The notes under the pieces were generated by a model. It searched no databases, was not told the DNA's origin, and saw only the letters and a list, made by a program, of their open reading frames with translations. A program made the translations under genes and the position numbers. Shown here piece by piece: positions 17,690 through 49,273 of a stretch of 64,000 nucleotides of DNA. Position 1 is the first letter of the stretch. Every line of letters starts with the position of its first letter. Origin of the DNA: a virus; IMG/VR virus record IMGVR_UViG_3300009551_000007, positions 17,753 to 81,752 of that record; one strand, given 5' to 3'.

Positions 17690-17819
17690 GGTAGCCGTCT
17701 CCGTACAGCCCTCGCCCGTAGTGGGCGATAGGCGGGTTTTTCACAGGCGGATAAAAACTGAACGAGACGGTATAATACGAGATTTTGCTTTATCGCGTTT
17801 TCCCTAAATCCTTTCTCGC

Positions 17820-32353: not shown

Positions 32354-33052
32354 TCAATAACGTCTAACCTCCCACCATATGGTATTGAAGCCGGGAACCG
32401 TGCCCCATTCACATTCGTAGGTGGAGAACTCGACCACGTGACCGGGATAGCGGTCTAGTAGTATCTCCAACCAATCGAGACTGTTCGGGCACATGTGCTG
32501 CTTGAGTATCAGCCGTGCCCTGGTTCCTTCCGCGTGCATTCGCGACTGGTAATCCCTCCGGGCGTATTCGGCGTTGAAGCCGTCGCGCATCGTCATCCGT
32601 TCGCGGTTGAACATTAGGTACAGACCGGCACTGTTCATTCCGGCATGGGTCGGCTCGGTCGCCGGGTCGAGTAGCACGATTTCGCCTTGGAGTACCTTGC
32701 GGTGTTCCGGGGCCATCGCCGAGCAGTACCACACGTCGGGGTTCGGTGCGGTCGACCATAGATTCACGATCTGCCACGCCGACATGTTGTAATGGGTTGC
32801 GCCCGCAGCGACCTTGTTACGCAAGTGGAACTTCTGATCATAGCCGAGTTTCTCAGCCCAGTCGTAGGCGTGCTGGAAGTCGTACAGGGTCTTCCAGGTC
32901 GGCGAAGCGTTGCCGAACTCTCCCGCCGCGTACCGCCGCGCGAAGTCGACCTTGGTTAGCACGGGCGGCGGGTGCTCGATTTCGCGGAACCTTATCCAGT
33001 GCAGGTTCACCCATTCATTCACGTCCACTATTTCGCCCTCCGTTTCAACCAT
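32354..33052 (-). CDS. hypothetical protein in nucleotide-modification cluster
   Basis: About 230 aa, coupled to the TS-like gene; start uncertain. Confidence 0.5.
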   Translation of the reverse strand: MVETEGEIVDVNEWVNLHWIRFREIEHPPPVLTKVDFARRYAAGEFGNASPTWKTLYDFQHAYDWAEKLGYDQKFHLRNKVAAGATHYNMSAWQIVNLWSTAPNPDVWYCSAMAPEHRKVLQGEIVLLDPATEPTHAGMNSAGLYLMFNRERMTMRDGFNAEYARRDYQSRMHAEGTRARLILKQHMCPNSLDWLEILLDRYPGHVVEFSTYECEWGTVPGFNTIWWEVRRY

Positions 33053-34380
33053 TCGGTACAAGCCAACCGCCAGTCGTCGGCCATTATGGTCGTGGCGACC
33101 TCTAAGGCATGATCCATGCTCTCCCGCCCGTCAATACCGGCGGAGTCCTTGGCTTTAGACCTCTTATATGCCTTGAACGCACTGAACGTTGGAGATGCTA
33201 CGTTACGCAGGAACGGCTCGCTTATGTCGCCCAGGTTTAGTGAACGGTCGGAATCCCCACCGTCGTAGAAGTCAACTATCGTCCGTAGTTGATCCTCGAA
33301 CACCTCTACATTCTTGATGAGTGGCACAGTCTTGGAGATCATACAGCCTGGGGCATCAGTGTGGAGAGAATACCCGTCAGCGAAATTTTTGGCATTGAGC
33401 CATTCCTCCGGCTTCCAGTTCCAGTCGTAGACGTGGAGGTTGTTGGTGAAGTGGTGGTACTTACCAACTTCGGCACCTAGTCTCGCGGCCATGTACTCCT
33501 GGAGGAAGGTAAAGTGACAATAGTTGGCTCCTAGTAGTCCCCAGATCAGATCGTTGCTGCGGTTAGTCACCGTCATGTCGAGATAGGTCTTAGTCCCCCG
33601 TACCGGCATCGCCATGTGATGCTCAGCCTCTCTATTGATATACTCCTCTTGGCGGATGCTAAACATCACCGACAGGTTGCAGCATGTATCGCGAGACCCT
33701 TTGTCTTTATGTGTACCGTCACATTCAGGACAGTGACCACTTTGGTTAGGGTCTCCGTTAAATTTATCACCGGCTCCGTTACAGTACCTACAAACCCCTC
33801 CCCCAATCTTCAACAGGTCGTCCTCCACATTCCACATCTGGAGCACGGCCCGGCGGGAATTGGGGTCTGCCTTGAGATGGTTGACAAGAATGTCCAGTTG
33901 ATCAATCCCTCCATGTTGTTTGTGCCAAGCTAATTTCACGCTCGGACATTCTTCAAATCCCTTAATACTGGTCATAGCAGTCCGCCACCGATACCCGTAA
34001 GCCCCATTAGTGGTCACCCCGTCGTCGCTGAATTCCTTCATCTTCTTCGCGTAGTACGCGAGCGGGGTTACGTCGTTCCGACCCGCGAGCATCCATAAGG
34101 CTTCGTAGAGGTGGAAGAATGGGTTAGCGTCGCGTGCGGCGTTGAATAGTACCCGTTCCCGTGGGTGCGAGTAGGTGAGCGTGACCGGTTCGTCGATCAT
34201 CATCACGTTGCCGTTGCGGGACGGTTTCTTGACGACCAGTTCTCTCTCTACGTAGTCAGTGTGTAGTGGGTTCCCATCGTCGTCGTAGCTGGTCCTGGCC
34301 TCGCGGACCTTGCCGCCGTTCTTAAATAGTTTCACCAAGTCGCGGAAGGCGGTGTTTACGTTTCGAGTGCGTAGGTGCAT
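33028..34380 (-). CDS. thymidylate synthase-family dUMP hydroxymethylase (5-hmdUMP synthesis)
   Basis: RDANPFFH, GAYGYRWR, SRRAVLQMW, catalytic CN, NRSND..G..AN and NNLHVY motifs; cluster context. Confidence 0.8.
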   Translation of the reverse strand: MHLRTRNVNTAFRDLVKLFKNGGKVREARTSYDDDGNPLHTDYVERELVVKKPSRNGNVMMIDEPVTLTYSHPRERVLFNAARDANPFFHLYEALWMLAGRNDVTPLAYYAKKMKEFSDDGVTTNGAYGYRWRTAMTSIKGFEECPSVKLAWHKQHGGIDQLDILVNHLKADPNSRRAVLQMWNVEDDLLKIGGGVCRYCNGAGDKFNGDPNQSGHCPECDGTHKDKGSRDTCCNLSVMFSIRQEEYINREAEHHMAMPVRGTKTYLDMTVTNRSNDLIWGLLGANYCHFTFLQEYMAARLGAEVGKYHHFTNNLHVYDWNWKPEEWLNAKNFADGYSLHTDAPGCMISKTVPLIKNVEVFEDQLRTIVDFYDGGDSDRSLNLGDISEPFLRNVASPTFSAFKAYKRSKAKDSAGIDGRESMDHALEVATTIMADDWRLACTEWLKRRAK

Positions 34381-34416
34381 GATCAGCTCCTTGAAAGACG
34401 GGCGACTAGGGGTAGG

Positions 34417-35031
34417 TTACGCGATACCGGCTTCACGGTTCGCTTGGTTGAAAAGTTCGGTCGCGTAACTCATGAATTCGAGCACGAGGCGCGACTCGAT
34501 GCCCAGCTGCATCATAGGCGGGAAGTCCACGTTCACTTCGCGGACGATCTCCATTGCTTTGTTGATTATGGACTGGGAACCGCCGATAATGTTCTCGACG
34601 GTCCGGGCGTGGACGGTTTCCTTTAACCCGTAGAACTGGGCTGCAGCGTACTGCTCGATTTTGTCGAACAATTCGACCCGTTCCCAGTCCTCCACCGACG
34701 GAACCCGTCCGGCTAACTGAAGCCAGAACCGCTCGCGGACCGGCTTCTCAGCCGCACGCTGGCCGACACATTTTACTGGGCCGGGCACGTCGCCGAACAC
34801 TGTTACTTCCACCTCATGTAGGAGTGTAAATAACGCCACTTCGGCTCGTGCGTCGAAGTACCGGGCGAGCCGAGCGGCCCCGACACAGTGATGTGCGACC
34901 GATTGGAACAGTCGGGTATGGCCGGCATACATTGGCGTCCGACAGTGGTTGAGTGCTATGTCGTGCATTGTAGCTACGCCGTCGTCGGGTTCGATGCGGG
35001 CACCAGAGAAGAGGACGATGTAGGGTTTCAT
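34417..35031 (-). CDS. HD-family 5'-deoxynucleotidase-like protein
   Basis: DIA...YAGHT...SVAHHC...LLHE...GDVPGPVK (YfbR-like, HD to HE variant). Confidence 0.65.
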   Translation of the reverse strand: MKPYIVLFSGARIEPDDGVATMHDIALNHCRTPMYAGHTRLFQSVAHHCVGAARLARYFDARAEVALFTLLHEVEVTVFGDVPGPVKCVGQRAAEKPVRERFWLQLAGRVPSVEDWERVELFDKIEQYAAAQFYGLKETVHARTVENIIGGSQSIINKAMEIVREVNVDFPPMMQLGIESRLVLEFMSYATELFNQANREAGIA

Positions 35032-35059
35032 TTTAGCTCCTTGAGGCGGGCGAACGTGG

Positions 35060-35626
35060 TTAGGCGGGCGAAGACGTTAGTGATCTGAGACTCTCCCGCA
35101 CGTATGCGACAGGGTCGGTCATGGCGTGCCGGTTATCGTTGCGACGATGAGGGAATAGTACTGCCTTTCCCCCGGTCGCGCGGCCCTTCTCGTCGGCGAC
35201 GAACCGGTTACAGTTAGGCGGGCTGTCGTCGATCAAGACGGCACCGGGCTTCGCGACCTTGTACTTGTGCGGGGTAATGAGGAACCGGTCGAACCGCGGG
35301 CCGAAGAACTGTTTCATCCACCGGACCTTGCCAGTATAGGACGCCTGACAGTGGCCCGCGTCCGTCAGAGTTTCGAGGGGGCAAGTAACGATGTGGAACG
35401 CCGAATCGTACCGCTGGACGAGGGCGATCAGTTCATCGGCCCACTCGAAGGGCTTGAGGCCCGTCCAGAAGTCGGCGTCTCCCACGATTGGCCGAATGAA
35501 CTTCTCACCGGTCCACACCGAGTCGCCGTAGACGCGGATCATTTCCAGGTGAGTGAGGCCGTGTGCCCGACACGCGCCGCCGAGAAAATCGACCAGCACC
35601 TCGTCGAGGTCGAGAAAAATTTCCAC
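35060..35626 (-). CDS. HAD-family 5'(3')-deoxyribonucleotidase
   Basis: FLDLDEVLVDF and LIDDSPPN motifs. Confidence 0.75.
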   Translation of the reverse strand: MEIFLDLDEVLVDFLGGACRAHGLTHLEMIRVYGDSVWTGEKFIRPIVGDADFWTGLKPFEWADELIALVQRYDSAFHIVTCPLETLTDAGHCQASYTGKVRWMKQFFGPRFDRFLITPHKYKVAKPGAVLIDDSPPNCNRFVADEKGRATGGKAVLFPHRRNDNRHAMTDPVAYVRESLRSLTSSPA

Positions 35627-35688
35627 ACTAAGTCCTCCATAAAATCCAAGGGTCGGAAACAATTTGAGAGAAAACAGCCGGTACGCTA

Positions 35689-35716
35689 TTGACGTTGCGG
35701 GCCGACCGGCTATTAT
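35689..35716 (+). promoter_or_regulatory. sigma70-like promoter for 35794..36258
   Basis: TTGACG-16 nt-TATTAT. Confidence 0.5.
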
Positions 35717-35793
35717 AACGGTGTAGGGCGAAGTGGGGGTTCAGCCGAAGACTGTCTGACGCGACCCTCGCTGACCTATAAAGGAGCTTTAAG

Positions 35794-36258
35794 ATGACCA
35801 TTGCTAACACCACGACCACGACCACCCCGAAGACCGCCGGTAAGTCGAAGACCGCGAACCCGAAGCCGGCGAAGGGCGCGAAGCCGGTAGCCGCGAAGAA
35901 GGCCGACCCGAAGCCGAAAGCGCCGGCACTCAAGGAACTCAATAGTGGCCTCCGGACGCCGCAAGTGCGAGTGCTCCAAGCCCTCTCGAAGGGCAACGTA
36001 ATGAGCCGGTCGCAAATCAGCGAAGCCGGTAAGGTGGACCAGGCGGCTCTCGTCGAGTACATCGGTAGCTCCGACGACAACGTGCGAAAGGTCAACGACG
36101 AAAAGCACTTCAAGAGCCTGGTGACCCTCAAGTACGTGAAGTTCGCCAAGCCGCCGGAAGCAGACGCCGTCGGAGCGTACTACGAAATCACAGCCGCAGG
36201 TCGACAGATCGTCACCAAGATTCTCGCCGCCTACAAAGCCGCCGGTAAGACGGTCTGA
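35794..36258 (+). CDS. basic DNA-binding protein (PAK-rich tail plus winged helix)
   Basis: AAGGAG RBS; KPAKGAKP repeats; YYEITAAGRQ wing motif. Confidence 0.65.
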   Translation: MTIANTTTTTTPKTAGKSKTANPKPAKGAKPVAAKKADPKPKAPALKELNSGLRTPQVRVLQALSKGNVMSRSQISEAGKVDQAALVEYIGSSDDNVRKVNDEKHFKSLVTLKYVKFAKPPEADAVGAYYEITAAGRQIVTKILAAYKAAGKTV

Positions 36259-36284
36259 CCCGCTACCCGATTCGCCCAATCTTC

Positions 36285-36318
36285 AAACACCCCAGCATTA
36301 GCCGGGGTGTTTCGCTTT
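36285..36318. terminator. bidirectional intrinsic terminator
   Basis: AAACACCCC-loop-GGGGTGTTT between convergent genes. Confidence 0.65.
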
Positions 36319-37148
36319 TACCCCACATTCCACATTAGCATTTCGCCGGCGTACTCGCTACGGTGATTTATCAACCAGCGGAACGCCTTCAGGTCGTAAT
36401 ACTTGTTCGACGGCCACGCCGGGTCTCGCCCCGGCCTCGACTCGTCGCCGTAAGAGTACCCTTCGTCAATAATCGTCAAGTCGTCGTCCATTGAGTACCC
36501 GGACGAATCCGCCAGGTACTGGAGCAGTTCCTCGTGACTCCGCGAATAGCCCAAGTGGATAATGAACTTGGGTGGTGACCGTCCGATATCGTTGGCACGG
36601 TCGACGAACCCGCGAATCACCCCGGCGGCGATTGTACCCGACGACGCCGGCACTATCACGTAATCGGCGTAGGGGCAGCCGGTCACTTCCTTCGCGGTCT
36701 CGTCGACCGATTCGCTCAGCTTTAGGGCGTTGGGGATCATTACGCCGCCGCGCCCCAGCACGTCCTTCTTCGCCTGATGATAGAGCACGGCACTCATGCC
36801 GGCTTTTAGTGCGACGATTTCCGCGCCCAGTTCCGCCGATTTGAGCTGTGCCGGAAACGGTCCCTTCTCCTTCACGCGACTCGGATAGTAGTTCACGCAT
36901 TTCTTACCGAGGAGCGAACAAGCGCGTGCGACCGCGTGGCCAGCTTGAGAGTGGTACGTGTCGAGGACGCCGATCACTTCCGCCTCCTGTTTCGCTACCC
37001 AAGCGTAGACGCCGCGCGCCTTGGAGAACGGTGGGCCTGGTGGGGGACACGCTAAGTCTTCGCGCTTCACCCAAAGCCCGAACGCCTCTCGGTGGTCCTC
37101 CACGGGCGTGTTACGATTGAGCATTCCGCGAGCCGTCCGAACCATCAT
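36318..37148 (-). CDS. PLP-dependent enzyme (fold type II), putative decarboxylase of the DNA hypermodification pathway
   Basis: TPVE...VKREDL...SKARG and VPASSGTIAAG motifs; cluster context. Confidence 0.75.
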   Translation of the reverse strand: MMVRTARGMLNRNTPVEDHREAFGLWVKREDLACPPPGPPFSKARGVYAWVAKQEAEVIGVLDTYHSQAGHAVARACSLLGKKCVNYYPSRVKEKGPFPAQLKSAELGAEIVALKAGMSAVLYHQAKKDVLGRGGVMIPNALKLSESVDETAKEVTGCPYADYVIVPASSGTIAAGVIRGFVDRANDIGRSPPKFIIHLGYSRSHEELLQYLADSSGYSMDDDLTIIDEGYSYGDESRPGRDPAWPSNKYYDLKAFRWLINHRSEYAGEMLMWNVG

Positions 37149-37341
37149 TAGATTTCCTCCGTCGATGCCGGGTAGAAACTATCGCCCTTGTCGTCGAGGA
37201 CGCTGACGCCGACGACGGCATCGCATTCACATATGTAAAGCGTCATCTGTCGTCCGTTCGCGGAACACGACTCTTCCTTTGGCGTGTTCAACGAATCGTG
37301 GACGTTACTGTAACGGTATGTCTTACCGCAGTAAGGGCATT

Positions 37342-38310
37342 TCACTTCCATAACCCGCCTCGCTTTCCCGCTTTGATTAGTTCTTGTGACAGTGGGCACT
37401 TCGCGAACCGTAGGAGGGCGTTCCGCGCCGCTCTCACGTCCTCGCCGATTTCGTAATGGCCCTTCGTGTATGAGTGCCATTTACATAATATCGTCTCCAC
37501 TTCCTGCCCGTTGAGAGGCCTATCGTACCGAGGCGGCGCGAAGCCCGCTAACCGGCCGCGGAACTCGTCCACCTCTCGGTTGTCGACCTCCACTCTCGAC
37601 ATCTTAGGAATCACGTTTAGCGGTCGCTGGCTATAGACCTTAGTTCGCGGGCGTTCGTTGCTAGGCGGTGATGCTAAGTGTGTAAGAATGTCGTTAATCG
37701 CCCACTCGCCTACCGCGTCGCCGAACCCGTTCGACGGTTCACCGCACACACTCCAGTGTAGCCGCGCCCCCTCCTGGGGAGAATCGTACATGACCGTGTG
37801 GGTGTCGAACGCGACCCGGCATAAGTCGAGGCGTTCGAGCATGTCCGCGACCTTGAAGGCGATCCACGGGCCGAACCCCACCCACGTTCTCACGTACCGG
37901 ATAATGTCTTCGGCGCGGAGGATGCCGAGCGTGCTTTTCGCCGGCCCGCTATCGAAGTAGGAGAACAGGTTATCGACGCCTTGCGACCGGAGCCATTTCA
38001 CCGACGCCTCCGCGTTCCGGCCGCGGAAGTGACGGCGTTCGGCGGAACGGGGGAAGTCGGCATTGCCCTTCGATAGAGCCGCCGTCATCATCCGGTCGAA
38101 GAACGCCGATTCGACGTCATGAGGGTACGCCAGCGCCGACGCCGTACCCACGTGGTAAAAGCACCAGTAGGCGAGGAGCCACCGCTTGAGCTTGAACCTG
38201 TGATGACTGTCGCGTAAGGCGTCGGCTTTGATTGCCTCCCACGCCAACACGTAGATCGGGTCCAGGTCGTTCAGTCGGAGCAGTTCGCGGCCGAAGGCGT
38301 AGACCGTCAT
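37342..38310 (-). CDS. amino acid:DNA transferase (aGPT-Pplase2-like)
   Basis: DLDPIY, RWLLAYWCFYH, ERRHFRG, FGPWIAFKVADMLER and EVETILCKW motifs. Confidence 0.75.
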   Translation of the reverse strand: MTVYAFGRELLRLNDLDPIYVLAWEAIKADALRDSHHRFKLKRWLLAYWCFYHVGTASALAYPHDVESAFFDRMMTAALSKGNADFPRSAERRHFRGRNAEASVKWLRSQGVDNLFSYFDSGPAKSTLGILRAEDIIRYVRTWVGFGPWIAFKVADMLERLDLCRVAFDTHTVMYDSPQEGARLHWSVCGEPSNGFGDAVGEWAINDILTHLASPPSNERPRTKVYSQRPLNVIPKMSRVEVDNREVDEFRGRLAGFAPPRYDRPLNGQEVETILCKWHSYTKGHYEIGEDVRAARNALLRFAKCPLSQELIKAGKRGGLWK

Positions 38311-38557
38311 GCCGCCGGTCTCGGTACTCACTTGCCGTCCTCCGCGACCTTGATCTGGATAGGCCCAGGTGGCAGATCGGTGGTGCCGCCCGGCTTCAGT
38401 CCGACGAGTATGGCACGGTCGGCGGACCAGGCCAAGTACACGTGGCATATCGGGCACCGTCCGCCGACGGGTACGGACTTCACGAACCGGTCCGGTTCCA
38501 TCTCGACGCGCTGCTTGCACACCGGACAGAATATGTTGACCTTGAATAGGGGCTGAC

Positions 38558-40918
38558 TCATTTCTTCACTCCGAGTTGAATGAGTTGGGTGGCGCGGCCC
38601 TTGCCTTCGCCGATGGGGATTTTCAGATCACGCATTTCGACCGCGTTCGCTTCGCCGGCCAGTTCGTCACCGCAGCGTGGCTTCCCGGCGTTGTCCTCGG
38701 AACAATGTAGACAGCCCGACGGCGGACACTCCTCGACCGGGCGGAACTGCTCGGCGTCGGAGGCACGCGTGAAGACCGGGACGGCGTGCCCGTGGCACTG
38801 GTCCGAGGTCGTGAAGTCGCGGGCGATACTGACGCCGGTCTTCGATAACACCTTCCCGTCGGCGTCGCGGGCGTACTTGTACTCGTAGCATACCGAGTAC
38901 GTGAGACCGTACTTGCGGGCGTAAGAGGAGTACATGCGGTGCGCCTTGAGGCGGTACTCCTCTTCCACCGTCCGCTGCGAACCGATGTTTTGCGTGAACA
39001 GTTTCTCGAACGCCGCGCCGCGTTCGCCGAACGTCTGTTTCATCCGCTCGACCATGGCCGGTGCTCAACTGTAGCCGGCCTCGACGAACTTGACTATGAC
39101 GTGGTCCGCGCCGACCGCCCGGAGGCGCTGGAACAGTTTGACGATGTCGCCGTGCGACGTCACCCCAGGCACTATTGGGTTGACCTGAATCGAGACGTAG
39201 ATGCCGGCGGTCTTCAGTCGCTCGATGTCGGCGTAATGGTCCTCCAGGCTCATGGCACCGGGCGAGAGGAGTTTCCAGTCTGCGGCGTCGCCCGTGTTGA
39301 GGGACTTTTGCGCGTAGGAGTACGGCGACAGCTTCAAGAGGTCCACGGCCCAGTCCGGGTAGCGGAGGCGCGACAGGAAGAACAAGGGCAGCCCGGCGTC
39401 GACGAACGCCTTCGCACCTTCCTCCGTATTGTGGTAATACTGTTCGAGAGGCGTGAACGGGTCGGTGAACGACGAGAAGTAGCCGGCCGCGCCCCGGCGC
39501 ATTTTGGTGATCTGTTGTCGCACCTGGTCGCCGTAACCCAGCGGGACGGTAATTAGGCCGGTGCCCCTGTAGCCGCGCATACCGGAGTTGATATAACAAT
39601 TGTGAACTAGAACGCCCCGCTGGAAGAAGTTTTGCGATTCGGTTTGGATGTCGTGGACGCGAACTCGTCCCGGTATTTTTTCAACCCCGACGACGTAAGT
39701 ATCCCCAATCTCTTTAGTGCCTTTTGGTCGAAAATTACCACGTGGTATCCCATTAGTCTGGCTTGCTGAATTTTCCTCTCGCCGTCGGCAGTCATGTACC
39801 CTTTCACCTCGAATATACAGTTGTCGGGAGGGAGAACGAAGTCGGGCACATATGCCGACCCGTCCGGCAACGAAATTGAAAACGGTTCGTAATCCCAATC
39901 GTACCCACGGCGGTCGAGGTACTCCGCGAGTAACCGTTCCCATCCCGACCTCATTTGAAATGTGCGACCTTTTCTGTCCGTGAATAGGCCGCGCTTGGAA
40001 TGTTTGTATCCCGATACGCCGTTCCTGACTCGTTCCGCTTGGGCTAATCTCCATTCCGGGGATTTCGGCCCACTGGCCCTCTTGCTCATAGACTCTCTGT
40101 TCGCGAGAGCATGGGCGCTCATTCTCTGGCGCGTCTCCGTAGACTTGGGCTTCCCCTTGGTAGGCGACGACTTGCCCAACCTCTTCATGCCGTTCTCGGA
40201 GCGAATCACTAACAGGCAAGCATCGCAGACTTTCCTGTGGTTCGGTATGACCGTATCGCATCGGCAGGCTTTCAAGGCGTTCTCCCGGTTTTAGGTTTAC
40301 CGCGTTCACCCATGCTCGGCGGGAAACCGAGTATACCGGATGATCACCGGTCATTAATAGCTTCCGCCCGTCGTTCAAAATCAATCTCACCAACCCTTCC
40401 GGCTTCCAATGCGACGTTACCCCCACGACCTTAGTGATTTGTACGCCCAACGGCGTCCTGCCCAGTACCGAGTCGCCGACTTTGAAACTTTCTATCGGTG
40501 CCGAACCATTGGGGGTGTCGACCAGTTCACCAGCTGGTAAAGAGAACTTACAGCCTACCGCGCACCAACCGCCGTAGGGTTCAGTGAGAACGGCTTCGGT
40601 GAAACAAGGCCGCGGGCGGCTCGCGGCGCTCTCGTTGTGAAGACTCTGATACCAACCTTGGAGTTCCTTACCCTTCTCAATTCTCATGTGAGGGTAGGGC
40701 TGGAGGTACGCGAGAACGGCCTTCTTGTCCTCGTCTTTGGCGTTGCGCACCATACCGATACGCACATCACGGACCTTGGTGACGCCCAGGTACGGGTCGC
40801 TGATCACGCGAATCGGTCCCAGTTCCTCACGGGGTTCCTTAGTCATGAAGTAATGGTAGCGTTCGGCGGACACGTCGGATTCATCGGTCCGCCCCACCCA
40901 GTCGGTCTCGTTATTCAC
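38558..40918 (-). CDS. radical SAM enzyme (hypermodification isomerase-like) containing an intein and an in-frame TGA at 39065-39067
   Basis: CAVGCKF|C motif restored on intein removal; FTDPF; ORF 38558..39055 is in frame three codons after the TGA and carries a Cys-rich C-terminus. Confidence 0.75.
39599..40543 (-). mobile_element. intein (315 aa, Ser1...His-Asn, +1 Cys)
   Basis: Block A SLPAGELV, block B MTGDHPVY, blocks F/G VHDIQTESQNFFQRGVLVHN/C. Confidence 0.9.
39607..40275 (-). CDS. putative homing endonuclease (Zn ribbon + NUMOD3-like + PD-(D/E)XK) nested out of frame in the intein
   Basis: GGGAGA RBS, TTG start; GKPKSTETRQRMS; RSGWE...YEP...YVPDF...EVKG. Confidence 0.8.
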   Translation of the reverse strand: MKACRCDTVIPNHRKVCDACLLVIRSENGMKRLGKSSPTKGKPKSTETRQRMSAHALANRESMSKRASGPKSPEWRLAQAERVRNGVSGYKHSKRGLFTDRKGRTFQMRSGWERLLAEYLDRRGYDWDYEPFSISLPDGSAYVPDFVLPPDNCIFEVKGYMTADGERKIQQARLMGYHVVIFDQKALKRLGILTSSGLKKYRDEFASTTSKPNRKTSSSGAF

Positions 40919-41228
40919 TGTCGGTCTCCTTGGATTGTTCTGAGTGCCACTTGTAGAACGTCGCCAATTTGGCGTCGACGCGGCCCATGTAAGCCGCGTC
41001 GTTCAAGCCGTTAGCTTGTGTGAAAAACAGTACCGCCGCGTTGAGGTCAGCCAGTTCGGCCCGGAGGCCGTCGCGGAGGTCACCGTCCCAGTGCTTCGTG
41101 TCGCCGCCGGTCTGGAGGAGCTTGCCCAGTACCTGGAGGACTTCACCACACTCCTCGATGAGCTTGGCCGTGCCGGGCCAGGTCTTCGACCCGAACGAAA
41201 ACGGGTCACCGCAGTTGATCTGATCCAT
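40911..41228 (-). CDS. small MazG-like protein
   Basis: KLIEECGEVLQ...AELADL; GGAGGGAG RBS. Confidence 0.65.
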   Translation of the reverse strand: MDQINCGDPFSFGSKTWPGTAKLIEECGEVLQVLGKLLQTGGDTKHWDGDLRDGLRAELADLNAAVLFFTQANGLNDAAYMGRVDAKLATFYKWHSEQSKETDSE

Positions 41229-41538
41229 CGTCTCCCTCCCGTATCTGTCGCAGTTTCCAACCGGCCACCAGGCCAATGAGGAACGCGAACAGCATTCCGA
41301 TTGCCACCGTGAGAACCGTGCTAGTCATCGTCGGCACTCCTCACGCTCGTGTCGTCGGCGATCTTTCGGACCGTTACCGTGACGACGTACTGGACGTTGT
41401 AAGAGTCAGTGAGGACACGCGCCAGTGCCGTCTCGATCTGCTCACCGATACGCACGGCGGGCAGATACTCCTCGTCTGCGGTGACGAACGTCTTATCCAT
41501 CAGCACATCGTTCGGACTCATAGTTCCCTCCAGAGAGT

Positions 41539-42195
41539 TTAGGCACGCACTCGTGCCGTGAGTAGGTTGACGACTAGTTCCGGTAACTGGCGGGCGGAAG
41601 CGCGGCGGCACCATACGCCCGCTTCGGTCAATTTTACCCGCGCCCGCTCTATCGTATTGACCCGCTTAGTTGTATTCAAGTGGTTGAGTTCCTTTTCGTT
41701 TCCGGCTTCCTGTCGCCGCGCCTTGATCTGATCGAGACACTTATCGACTGGCGTGTTGAGGAAGAAGCAGCGGACGTCGGACATTTGGAGTGTCCATTTT
41801 GTGTCCTCTGAGAGGAGTAGCCCCTCGGTTAGTACGACTCCCGCACCGCCGATTATGCGGCGGCATGTACAACCCTTCACGTCGCCGGCGTCAATCACGT
41901 CGTACACGGCGCGTGCCGAACCAATGTTGTCGCACCCGCCGCAGACCGCTTCGTAATGGCCGAGCACTATGATTCTAGGCGGGAAAATCGGTAGCCTGGA
42001 GTTACCTAGTTCCATGTCGTACTCGCGGAGGTAGTAGCCGAGTGGCTTCTTGCGCCCCTCGAACTCGACCAGCTTGCCGTTATCGACGCCGGCGTCAACG
42101 TAGAAGGGCACCCAATCGCTGCCGAGGAGTGACATTATGGACCTCATAGCCCAGGTCTTGCCTGATCCTGAGGTGCCGCGAATTTGCACGATCAT
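41539..42195 (-). CDS. P-loop nucleotide kinase
   Basis: IRGTSGSGKT Walker A; GGCD; LTEGLL; cluster context. Confidence 0.75.
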   Translation of the reverse strand: MIVQIRGTSGSGKTWAMRSIMSLLGSDWVPFYVDAGVDNGKLVEFEGRKKPLGYYLREYDMELGNSRLPIFPPRIIVLGHYEAVCGGCDNIGSARAVYDVIDAGDVKGCTCRRIIGGAGVVLTEGLLLSEDTKWTLQMSDVRCFFLNTPVDKCLDQIKARRQEAGNEKELNHLNTTKRVNTIERARVKLTEAGVWCRRASARQLPELVVNLLTARVRA

Positions 42196-42875
42196 TAGCC
42201 CCTCCGAATGGTTCTCAGTTCGAGGTCGAGGCCGGCGATGGCCCGCCTCAAGTTTTCCTCGGTCAGTAAGCAGTTCAGTTCGCGGTACACGCCGCCCCTC
42301 GCGCCCGGCACCGGAACGAGTTTATCGGCCCACTCCATGCGGCGGTAATCGCCCTTCCAGACGTTCCCCGACGACGTTTCATCCGTGACGCCCTGCTCGC
42401 TCGCCTGACCGTGAAACACGACCACGATGTCGACGTCGCTCGACAGACCCGTTGCCGCCCAGTTGGTCGCTCGCGGATGCTTGATCTTCGGCGCGCGGAC
42501 CAGTAGGCACCGGAGAAGGTACTCACCGAGCGTCACCGTCGCGAGGGTCTCACTCGCGTTGATATTCTCGTACCCCAATTCGGTCTTGGCTTTCGGCAGC
42601 GCCTTGGCGACTTCGGCGGCGAACATGAGGAAGACGTCGTTGCTCACTTTGGTCTCGTCCTTAGACCCGTCTCGCATGCGGCGGTACACTTCGACCTTGT
42701 CGACGCCGGCGTTATTGTAGAACACGGCCACTGCCTGGATATGCGCTTCGGAGAGGAGGCTACCGACGCCGGCGGGGACGGCAGCAGCAGACACAGGGCC
42801 TGCTATGTGAAAGTAAGCGCGGACCGGGTCGGGGTTCGTCCCCTCAGTGACATGTATTAGGTTCGGTTCGGACAT
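42195..42875 (-). CDS. hypothetical protein
   Basis: 226 aa, translationally coupled ORF. Confidence 0.5.
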   Translation of the reverse strand: MSEPNLIHVTEGTNPDPVRAYFHIAGPVSAAAVPAGVGSLLSEAHIQAVAVFYNNAGVDKVEVYRRMRDGSKDETKVSNDVFLMFAAEVAKALPKAKTELGYENINASETLATVTLGEYLLRCLLVRAPKIKHPRATNWAATGLSSDVDIVVVFHGQASEQGVTDETSSGNVWKGDYRRMEWADKLVPVPGARGGVYRELNCLLTEENLRRAIAGLDLELRTIRRG

Positions 42876-42877
42876 TG

Positions 42878-43735
42878 TTAGACTCCTGGGTAACGGGATT
42901 TGGGCTTACCTTCGCTGTGGAGTGCGCGTTCGTACTTGTCGAACTCGCATAGACAGTTCTGGTAGTCGTGGGCTTCGAGGCGCGAACTAATTGATTCGGG
43001 GAGCACTGAGCGTAACTGTTCGATGAGTTCGCGGAGGCGTTCCACGAAATAGTCCTGATGGAAACCGGATTTTACCGGCAGTCCGAGGACGCGGTTCATT
43101 CCACGCGCACTGCCCGGCCCGACCGGTGCCCACCTGTTGTAATCGGACCAGTAACCGTCCTTTGCCCAGCGGAGGTCCGCGACGACTTGCCCGGCCATGA
43201 ACGAACCGAACCCGTACCGGCATACGAGCGCTTCGTGGGCGGCTTGCATGGTGGACCCGTCGATGACCGGTGGGTCGGACAGGAGGTGTTCGAGGTAATA
43301 GTCGAACACGGAAGCGATCTTATCCTGACCGTCGTTACCTCGCACCATGTATGCACCGTTGAATATCGTTACCCCTTGCCGTTTTACCGCGCGGAGGAGA
43401 GCGACTATGTCGTCAACTTGGGGGCCGCGAGAGTCGAATACGAGTTGGGTTATTCGGTCGAGGGACGACGGGAGGTTAATGAACCGCGCGACCGCCGCCG
43501 CGTACACGATACTGGGATGATCGAAATGGGGTTCGTACCAGTTGTTCCATAGCCAGACGCTCACGGCGTCGTCCATACGCCGGACGTTGCAGAAGCGGTA
43601 CTGCTGTAGTATCTCGTCGTCGGTCCAGGGCTTAGCTTCGCCCGCCATACGCTTCAAACGGACCGATTCCCGTTCGCGAATCCAGTATGCGAGACGGGCG
43701 AACGGGGACAGCTTACGGACGTCTTCGGTATTCAT
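42878..43735 (-). CDS. 5-hydroxymethyluridine DNA kinase (aGPT-Pplase1-like)
   Basis: ERE...PWTDDEILQQYRFCNVRRMDD, GSFMAGQVVADL, GPGSARG and QNCLCEFDKY motifs. Confidence 0.8.
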   Translation of the reverse strand: MNTEDVRKLSPFARLAYWIRERESVRLKRMAGEAKPWTDDEILQQYRFCNVRRMDDAVSVWLWNNWYEPHFDHPSIVYAAAVARFINLPSSLDRITQLVFDSRGPQVDDIVALLRAVKRQGVTIFNGAYMVRGNDGQDKIASVFDYYLEHLLSDPPVIDGSTMQAAHEALVCRYGFGSFMAGQVVADLRWAKDGYWSDYNRWAPVGPGSARGMNRVLGLPVKSGFHQDYFVERLRELIEQLRSVLPESISSRLEAHDYQNCLCEFDKYERALHSEGKPKSRYPGV

Positions 43736-43930
43736 ATTTTCCTCATAGGGTAAAAGCCTTGCACTGGTCATAATCCCAGTCCTCGACTAGGGCCTGGAAC
43801 CGGATGTGCGGGGGTAGGTCTTGAAACTTTAGGGCTATGGAGAGCCGCTCAATAGCACCGGCAACAGCCCTTGCAGCCCCACATGGCCGGCGGACACTGT
43901 TTCCCGCACCCCGGCCAGTGACAGTGGTGG

Positions 43931-49196: not shown

Positions 49197-49199
49197 TAG

Positions 49200-49273
49200 A
49201 GGCTCTGGTGGGGGGTCGAACCCACAACTCCGGGTTTAGAGTCCGACGTTTTACCGGTTAGAACTACAGAGCC
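49200..49273 (-). tRNA. tRNA with CUA anticodon (amber suppressor; Trp-like body)
   Basis: Acceptor GGCTCTG/CAGAGCC; D arm GTTC..GGTA.AAAC; loop CT-CTA-AA (anticodon 49237-49239); T arm GTGGG-TTCGA-CCCAC; one extra C in the T loop, an A-C mismatch in the anticodon stem, no encoded CCA. Confidence 0.75.

Follow-up and report, generated by a model that had tools for sequence, protein, structure and literature searches.

A T7-endonuclease-I-like nuclease gene nested in the +1 frame of an intein in a phage radical-SAM gene

We analyzed a stretch of 64,000 nucleotides (nt) of viral DNA, hereafter the window, which corresponds to positions 17,753 to 81,752 of the IMG/VR record IMGVR_UViG_3300009551_000007. 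In this stretch a radical-SAM gene is interrupted by an intein, and the DNA of the intein holds, in another reading frame, a second open reading frame (ORF) encoding a putative nuclease. With direct terminal repeats and a CheckV value of 100%, the phage record (81,752 bases) is complete, and it contains, over its whole length, one intein and one nuclease of the T7-endonuclease-I-like family. All features of the intein and nuclease system are on the minus strand (Table 1). The host ORF in the ORF list (39065..40918) encodes 617 amino acids (aa) and matches phrog_9252, annotated as "DNA repair photolyase" and belonging to the radical-SAM family, with E=1.3e-121; its homolog in phage YuA is gp12. 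At the DNA level the host gene is 60-80% identical to its counterpart in 68 isolate phage records, mostly of Pseudomonas YuA-like phages and Bordetella phages, and none of these 68 records covers the middle of the query DNA, i.e., the intein; a query coverage of 80% or more is reached by none of them.

The 617-aa ORF ends at an in-frame TGA, where the homologs of YuA, of Bordetella phage CN1 and of L003, a phage contig from IMG/VR described below, have a tryptophan. A second assembly, a Logan contig of 81,660 nt from the rhizosphere metagenome run X1, differs from the window at this codon (T>C at 39065) and reads TGG, and the database protein P0008 (786 aa) has a tryptophan at the same place. 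Hence, the radical-SAM gene is most likely intact as a single ORF of 786 aa, and the TGA is a variant or an assembly error. Recoding of TGA as tryptophan was considered and rejected: TGA ends 17 of the 47 long ORFs of the window, including the host gene itself at its own end, the other contig has TGG, and the phage has a tRNA whose anticodon CUA reads UAG, not UGA.

Relative to the intein-less gp12 proteins of YuA (480 aa) and CN1 (484 aa), the host protein carries an insert of exactly 315 aa. It abuts ...GC(K/A)F on one side and CYINSG... on the other, immediately before the third cysteine of the CxxxCxxC motif, the first two cysteines of which lie in the terminus CAVGCKF of the N-extein. We compared 16 related inteins, namely the large inteins, three mini-inteins, and those of L003 and of a further IMG/VR phage contig, L004. 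Position 1 is Ser in 15 of them and Cys in one, and all 16 have T-x-x-H in block B, V-[HFY]-D-I in block F, and the C-terminal His-Asn followed by Cys. The splicing motifs are intact, and the protein is predicted to splice. The G+C content of the intein is 54.0%, versus 58.4% and 62.0% in the exteins and 59.5% in the window.

Table 1. Position of the intein, the nested nuclease ORF and the flanking exteins in the window
Feature	Coordinates	Strand	Basis or remark
N-extein of the radical-SAM gene ("DNA repair photolyase", YuA gp12 homolog)	40544..40918	minus	phrog_9252, gp12 alignment
Class-1 intein, 315 aa, Ser1 to His-Asn, then Cys+1	39599..40543	minus	alignment to intein-less homologs, Pfam
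N-terminal splicing domain, about 92 aa, blocks A and B including T-G-D-H	40268..40543	minus	kept in 16/16 inteins
Host-frame "filler", about 185 aa	39707..40267	minus	stop-free, poorly conserved
C-terminal splicing domain, blocks F and G (...VHDIQT...VLVHN); the nested ORF overlaps it with its non-homologous tail	39599..39706	minus	kept in 16/16 inteins
C-extein	38558..39598	minus	alignment to YuA/CN1 gp12; in-frame TGA at 39065..39067
Shine-Dalgarno-like GGGAGA	40281..40286	minus	five bases 5' of the TTG; made by conserved Gly-Glu codons of the intein
Nested ORF, 222 aa, TTG start, TAG stop	39607..40275	minus	+1 frame relative to host
Catalytic codon E113	39937..39939	minus	
Catalytic codon D145	39841..39843	minus	
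Catalytic codon E156	39808..39810	minus	
Catalytic codon K158	39802..39804	minus	

The 945 nt of intein DNA contain no stop in the host frame, 11 stops in the +1 frame, and 17 in the third frame. Ten of the +1-frame stops are upstream of the nested ORF and the eleventh is the stop of this ORF itself. The nested ORF begins 643 bases after the start of the host ORF, which places it in the +1 frame, and its TAG lies two codons before the end of the intein, so that it overlaps blocks F and G. An earlier reading of the locus from its letters and ORF list, hereafter the sequence-only reading, had described an intein of this size at exactly this cysteine, a filler without stop codons, and a separate ORF starting with TTG after GGGAGA and running into blocks F and G, with both frames open over about 670 nt. 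All these elements were found in place. In composition the filler is enriched in R, G, S, E, Q, P and K, with a fraction of 0.57-0.59 versus 0.43 in the extein, and its conserved islands (e.g., L-G-L-R-T) are the -1 shadow of the invariant W-D-Y-E-P of the nuclease. The nested nuclease is not among the proteins called for the window contig.

In the product of the nested ORF, a Cys4 motif and a basic, NUMOD3-like region come before a PD-(D/E)XK core that resembles T7 endonuclease I. The product matches several phage families of endonucleases and resolvases (among them phrog_9019, E=1.2e-13; phrog_945, E=3.6e-12), and a search of 5.8 billion proteins returned seven homologs of 210-261 aa with 43-63% identity. 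The profile of these eight sequences matches chains of T7 endonuclease I (PDB 1m0d, 1fzr, 2pfj) with E=2.6e-5 for 1m0d, and the core motifs RSxxE, PDF and ExK align. Residues E113, D145, E156 and K158 are invariant in all eight aligned sequences (alignment A1); their equivalents are the catalytic residues of T7 endonuclease I. The latter is a stand-alone junction resolvase of about 149 aa, of which about 65 residues align with the window nuclease, and this one differs by an additional N-terminal part of about 100 aa made of the Cys4 motif and the basic region. At the level of cluster representatives, the nuclease family has 7244 members at E<=1e-3, 831 at E<=1e-10, and 16 at E<=1e-30.

The first hint that the homologs are nested in the same way came from their C-termini. 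Six of the seven end with a tail S-T-T-S-[KR]-... that lies outside the nuclease domain and results from reading block F of the intein (V-H-D-[LI]...) in the +1 frame. Two of the IMG/VR phage contigs gave the DNA of such loci. L003 has a host ORF of 799 aa with a 317-aa intein at the same site and a nested ORF of 223 aa starting with ATG; L004 has a 316-aa intein and a nested ORF of 198 aa starting with TTG. Their nucleases, at 52-59% identity, have the same frame offset as in the window. The host frame has no stop across the intein at any of the three loci, and the third frame has 23 stops in L003 and 14 in L004. Among the 21 loci examined, these two are the only ones where a second long frame is open over the length of the nuclease. 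With the intein as query, we retrieved ten further host proteins (P0009-P0018, 751-842 aa) that span the whole intein at 33-41% identity. For these we used codon-compatibility threading, which asks if a host protein can, by the genetic code, encode a nuclease in its +1 frame. The window pair was recovered as a control at 221 of 221 positions, and the nuclease P0005 threads into the host protein P0018 at 207 of 209 positions. With gaps allowed, all ten large inteins score 115-201 for a +1-frame nuclease, and another host protein, P0245, scores 155.8, scores which indicate compatibility with a +1-frame nuclease rather than a frame read as open. None of the null sets (shuffled queries, the three mini-inteins, and the +2 frame) scores above 22. 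Neither the 21 proteins nor the related loci examined include a version of the radical-SAM intein whose nuclease is in frame. These results, together with the controls for artefact and chance given below, confirm that the arrangement is genuine and conserved.

To see which frame is under selection, we used the nuclease alignment as a template for the three DNA sequences and tallied their differences by codon position. Across the nuclease, differences at its codon positions 1/2/3 number 72/62/128, 80/64/126 and 79/65/135 in the three pairs, and over the same nucleotides amino-acid identity is 54-58% in the nuclease frame versus 24-32% in the host frame. Over the N-terminal splicing domain the peak is instead at position 3 of the host codons (65, 59 and 69, versus 25-36 at positions 1 and 2). 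The position-3 peak flips between the two regions, hence the selected frame changes inside the intein. The host frame bears another mark of selection. A host-frame stop can arise only where a nuclease codon starting with AA, AG or GA follows a codon ending in T, and the T that makes the stop is found at none of 158 sites at risk, versus 102 of 482 other sites (Fisher p=1.35e-14). When synonymous codons are permuted or redrawn, 5-10 host-frame stops appear on average. The host frame is kept free of stops by selection while its amino-acid sequence is not conserved. Selection in the nuclease frame together with avoidance of stops in the host frame implies that both products are maintained: the nuclease for its sequence, the host-frame filler for continuity only.

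The nuclease is probably translated separately, by internal initiation. A GGAG is found 6-7 nt before the start codon at all three loci (TTG in the window and L004, ATG in L003), and the nearest upstream stop in the +1 frame is six codons before the start in the window and one codon before it in L003, which argues for initiation over frameshifting. The GGAG and the start codon lie within the conserved G-E-x-L-E codons of the intein, which mini-inteins also have. Hence, the start site may have been co-opted rather than imported. We searched for a regulatory hairpin at the nuclease start and found no fold better than those of shuffled sequences at the three loci (z = 0.22, -0.73, 1.28). No RNA run was listed as containing the stretch, a result that speaks neither for nor against expression. 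At the other end of the ORF, the stop is a TAG in both the window and L003, and read-through would add 17 residues before a TAA. The phage encodes a tRNA with anticodon CUA, of the amber suppressor type (ARAGORN label tRNA-Pyl), at 49199..49273 (minus strand), and TAG ends 13 of the 47 long ORFs of the window.

How frequent is the intein at this site? Among the best 120 of 668 homologs of the C-extein, classified by length only, 109 have at most 503 aa, nine have 759-835 aa, and two have 592 and 632 aa. On these lengths, the intein is a minority allele at the radical-SAM site. The closest relatives of the window extein (72-77% identity) are intein-less, as judged by length, and the extein of P0017 is 81% identical to the intein-less gp12 of CN1 and shares no more than 65% identity with any other extein that bears an intein. 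The same site is occupied in P0019, P0020 and P0022 by mini-inteins of 129-133 aa, which lack the nuclease. The distant relatives of the nuclease in viral contigs have another setting: the ten that we examined are all stand-alone, nine have several helix-turn-helix modules, six match endonuclease-I or DUF1064, and none has an intein domain. This stand-alone build with multiple helix-turn-helix modules is typical of free-standing homing endonucleases. Clear NUMOD3 matches are found in four of ten distant members of the family (P0100, P0125, P0089 and P0092). A free-standing copy of the nuclease, P0007, is found at 728..1558 of L029 (and in L024), in a metagenome-assembled genome of Actinomycetota, and no other frame is open across it. 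This copy is flanked by the end of a gene and by a near-duplicate of that end (...IELPR[SA]EWAQ...), as if it carried the 3' end of its target.

The mini-inteins and the free-standing relatives are consistent with the capture of a free-standing nuclease gene. The sequence-only reading had proposed that such a gene invaded a mini-intein and is translated in its own frame. This proposal is supported, being consistent with the whole of the sequence evidence; the direction of change may be either way, in that the nuclease may have invaded a mini-intein or mini-inteins may have arisen by loss of the nuclease.

The region of the iron-sulfur motif is a hot spot for inteins, with more than one insertion site. 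In P0205, P0214 and P0258 a large intein lies before the first cysteine of CxxxCxxC, seven codons upstream of the site described here, and the threading scores for a +1-frame nuclease are 73.7, 39.4 and 61.2, respectively (null at most 21). In P0269 each of the two sites carries a mini-intein, one of which begins with Ala, and P0021 has another intein further upstream, after ...RNRPC. An in-frame arrangement was seen in a different gene. P0086, a DNA-polymerase-like protein of 571 aa, runs in frame from an intein N-domain into a Cys4 motif, NUMOD3 and an endonuclease-I-like nuclease and ends without the C-terminal part of the intein, thus resembling a fractured gene or a split intein. The DNA encoding P0086 was not found among the viral contigs searched. 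By its sequence this is the sole in-frame fusion that we found, and its intein is different from that of the radical-SAM gene.

The reading that we favor, with a probability of roughly 0.8, is that the locus holds a composite selfish element, made of a class-1 intein and a separately read homing-type nuclease gene in the +1 frame. Its splicing, the separate translation, the specificity of cleavage and the homing are all predictions from sequence. The 786-aa radical-SAM precursor would be translated whole and the intein would excise itself and leave CAVGCKF joined directly to CYINSG, by which the iron-sulfur motif CxxxCxxC would be restored. Other ribosomes would initiate at the internal TTG (the ATG in the relative L003) after the GGAG, and the resulting nuclease would cut intein-less alleles near the CxxxCxxC codons. 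Recombinational repair would then copy the intein along with the nuclease. In the host frame, the nuclease gene would be read as a linker of about 185 aa whose sequence is unconstrained and whose sole requirement is to be free of stops; because it is free of stops, the host enzyme can still be made.

Could the second frame be an artefact? A nuclease originally in frame might have been displaced by compensating indels or in a pseudogene, or a second frame might be open by chance in G+C-rich DNA, and the high G+C content of the window and the one base by which the other assembly differs in this same gene (the TGA at 39065) go in that direction. The chances of this are nevertheless close to nil. 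Over 2051 bases that base is the only difference in the Logan contig, which has no indel; run X1 is probably the source sample, so the contig counts as an independent assembly and not as independent data. Compensating indels in the reads and homologs with the nuclease in frame had both been named beforehand as what would overturn the proposal; the former are absent from the Logan contig and the latter were not found for this intein. An assembly or sequencing frameshift is further rejected by L003 and L004, which have the same offset in spite of their divergence, and the 11 threaded host proteins are compatible with a nuclease in the +1 frame only. As for chance, when synonymous codons are reshuffled or redrawn, the host frame is still open in a fraction of only 0 to 0.0014 of 5000 trials, depending on locus and method, and the third frame has 14-23 stops. 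A further possibility is programmed +1 ribosomal frameshifting, by which the nuclease would be made as a fusion to the N-extein and the N-domain of the intein. In L004 an open +1 frame extends from the beginning of the intein, so that a fusion product is possible there, and in P0086 a member of the nuclease family is indeed fused in frame to an intein N-domain, in another gene. Yet the +1-frame stops just before the start codon in the window and L003 leave hardly any room for a shift site, GGAG and a start codon are present at all three loci, and there is no significant RNA structure, which makes this explanation highly unlikely.

It is also unlikely, although less so than frameshifting, that the nested nuclease is retained without a role in homing, either because it was domesticated (e.g., as a junction resolvase) or because it is a decaying relic in a vertically inherited intein. 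T7 endonuclease I, its closest relative of solved structure, is a structure-specific resolvase and not a site-specific enzyme, and the phage relatives are annotated as Holliday junction resolvases. The identity of the splicing domains correlates with that of the exteins (Spearman 0.51), and much of the association thus looks old and vertical. The first cysteine pair of the window nuclease is CxC, versus CxxC in the relatives. Against decay speak the substitution pattern at position 3 and the invariance of the catalytic tetrad at 54-58% identity. Further points against a nuclease without a role in homing are the N-terminal Cys4 and basic modules, the location in an intein and the multiple helix-turn-helix modules of the free-standing relatives, which are typical of homing enzymes, and an intein that is a minority allele missing from close relatives. 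Other results weigh against the composite homing element itself, along with the resolvase activity, the vertical signal, the altered cysteines and the open frame of L004 just mentioned. The Pfam model Intein_splicing matches the intein with E=7.2e-8 and 32.8 bits (34.8 bits in a search of the whole genome), below the curated cut-off of 35.8. Phage_endo_I (PF05367) matches the nuclease with E=1e-4 and 22.4 bits, under a cut-off of 29.1; as this threshold is missed, we call the nuclease endonuclease-I-like and not a member of PF05367. The match to NUMOD3 (PF07460) is weak (E=0.052, 13.9 bits, cut-off 20.4), and a zinc ribbon is read from the cysteine motif only. The latter two were named in the sequence-only reading, whose description is corrected to this extent. 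The GGAG may not have evolved as a ribosome-binding site. Finally, P0009-P0018 and P0245 are known as proteins alone, and their open +1 frame is deduced rather than read.

Beyond the composite element, the data can be joined in a broader reading, to which we give about even odds: as a dual-coding module of long standing, the locus would preserve a record of the way in which inteins gain nucleases. In this broader reading a mini-intein may have captured a free-standing, T7-endonuclease-I-like homing gene without breaking the host frame, and the ribosome-binding site and start codon of the nuclease may have been built from the Gly-Glu-x-Leu-Glu codons of the intein. The 185-aa "linker" may be an overprinted polypeptide that is selected only against stops. 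One lineage of nucleases may also serve the two insertion sites that are seven codons apart, before the first and the third cysteine; if it does, the nuclease and not the splicing domain would define the target region. On this broader reading, PD-(D/E)XK enzymes of the endonuclease-I-like kind would be a further type of homing endonuclease tied to inteins.

The genes around the host gene (33028..43771, minus strand) include a thymidylate-synthase-like enzyme, nucleotide phosphatases, a pyridoxal-phosphate (PLP) enzyme resembling "threonine dehydratase", and a kinase-like member of a "small terminase" family. In YuA and CN1 a thymidylate synthase, a kinase-like small terminase and a PLP enzyme are likewise found beside the radical-SAM gene. 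This set of neighbors is consistent with a thymidine-hypermodification cluster. A contig of 272 nt from the soil metagenome X2, from another study (2025), is identical to positions 40180..40451 of the window, i.e., to part of the intein N-domain and the start of the nuclease; it is too short to indicate a habitat.

The sequence-only reading had cautioned that similar architectures might have been reported, and this was right: out-of-frame homing endonucleases (HENs) are already published for other inteins, mainly in preprints of 2025-2026 from the Gogarten laboratory. Gosselin, Arsenault and Gogarten report 63 non-canonical inteins among 784 actinophage inteins and propose that inteins are invaded by free-standing HENs (bioRxiv 10.1101/2025.01.02.630785). 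As in the window, their HEN ORF is read from the same strand in another frame and is flanked by the splicing blocks, the host frame is free of stops, and there are free-standing relatives. The nuclease is in their case endonuclease VII-like and in "frame 3", and in the window a T7-endonuclease-I-like PD-(D/E)XK enzyme in the +1 frame; their host genes are those of actinophage DNA polymerase, minor capsid protein, terminase and thymidylate synthase, and ours is a radical-SAM gene of a YuA-like soil phage. The terms "Radical SAM" and "endonuclease I" have no occurrence in the main text of that preprint, its supplements being outside this count. Phillips, DeSimone and Gogarten describe a LAGLIDADG enzyme in a +2 ORF of a cyanobacterial dnaX intein and credit the idea to Gorbalenya 1998 (bioRxiv 10.64898/2026.09.14.751524). 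The dnaX intein shares with ours an overlapping ORF between the splicing domains, a Shine-Dalgarno-like motif before the start, coexisting mini-intein alleles, and selection that is purifying in the endonuclease frame and relaxed in that of the intein. For dnaX, disorder is predicted in the in-frame stretch, and the authors propose a secondary invasion. The two systems differ in that one is cellular (cyanobacteria), with a LAGLIDADG enzyme, a +2 frame and another extein, and the other is from a phage, with an endonuclease-I-like enzyme in the +1 frame.

Two further systems are related in some of their parts. The fractured genes of Dassa et al. 2009 (PMC2677866) encode split inteins with a gene for a Vsr-like or GIY-YIG endonuclease between the halves. 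They are like the window locus in being phage genes with a free-standing nuclease gene at the endonuclease insertion point that overlaps the 3' part of the intein, and they also led to a model of how inteins acquire nucleases. There, however, the host gene is in two ORFs, splicing is in trans and the overlaps are of 6-69 bp, whereas here the overlap is about 670 nt and the host frame is continuous at all three DNA loci, without a stop across the intein. Hence, cis-splicing is expected. The ShiLan-type insertions of phage methylase genes (Arsenault et al. 2025, PMC11855218) hide an HNH nuclease ORF out of frame, in an alternative frame of an insertion that is itself in frame and free of stops, as in our case; they have no detectable splicing domains, whereas the window element is a complete intein. 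In the literature, with supplements and the literal term PD-(D/E)XK outside the scope of the search, we found no report that places an intein in the radical-SAM gene of a phage, and none of an intein carrying a nuclease of the endonuclease-I-like kind. What sets the locus apart is the family of the nuclease, the +1 offset, the host gene, the phage group and the depth of conservation.

It is only recently that out-of-frame homing endonucleases were described in inteins, and they were called rare. The locus adds to them the T7-endonuclease-I-like PD-(D/E)XK family, for which we found no prior link to inteins, and a host gene that encodes a radical-SAM enzyme of a cluster of the thymidine-hypermodification type in YuA-like phages. 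It also provides clean evolutionary evidence, with at least 14 diverged examples at one site and three likely ones at a neighboring site: the selected frame switches inside the intein, and the avoidance of stops at the level of codons shows that both products matter. For annotation, it means that gene callers miss the nested nuclease gene. The natural, sequence-free linker of about 185 aa that this intein tolerates may interest intein engineers. The locus also provides a living intermediate between mini-inteins, fractured genes and canonical inteins.

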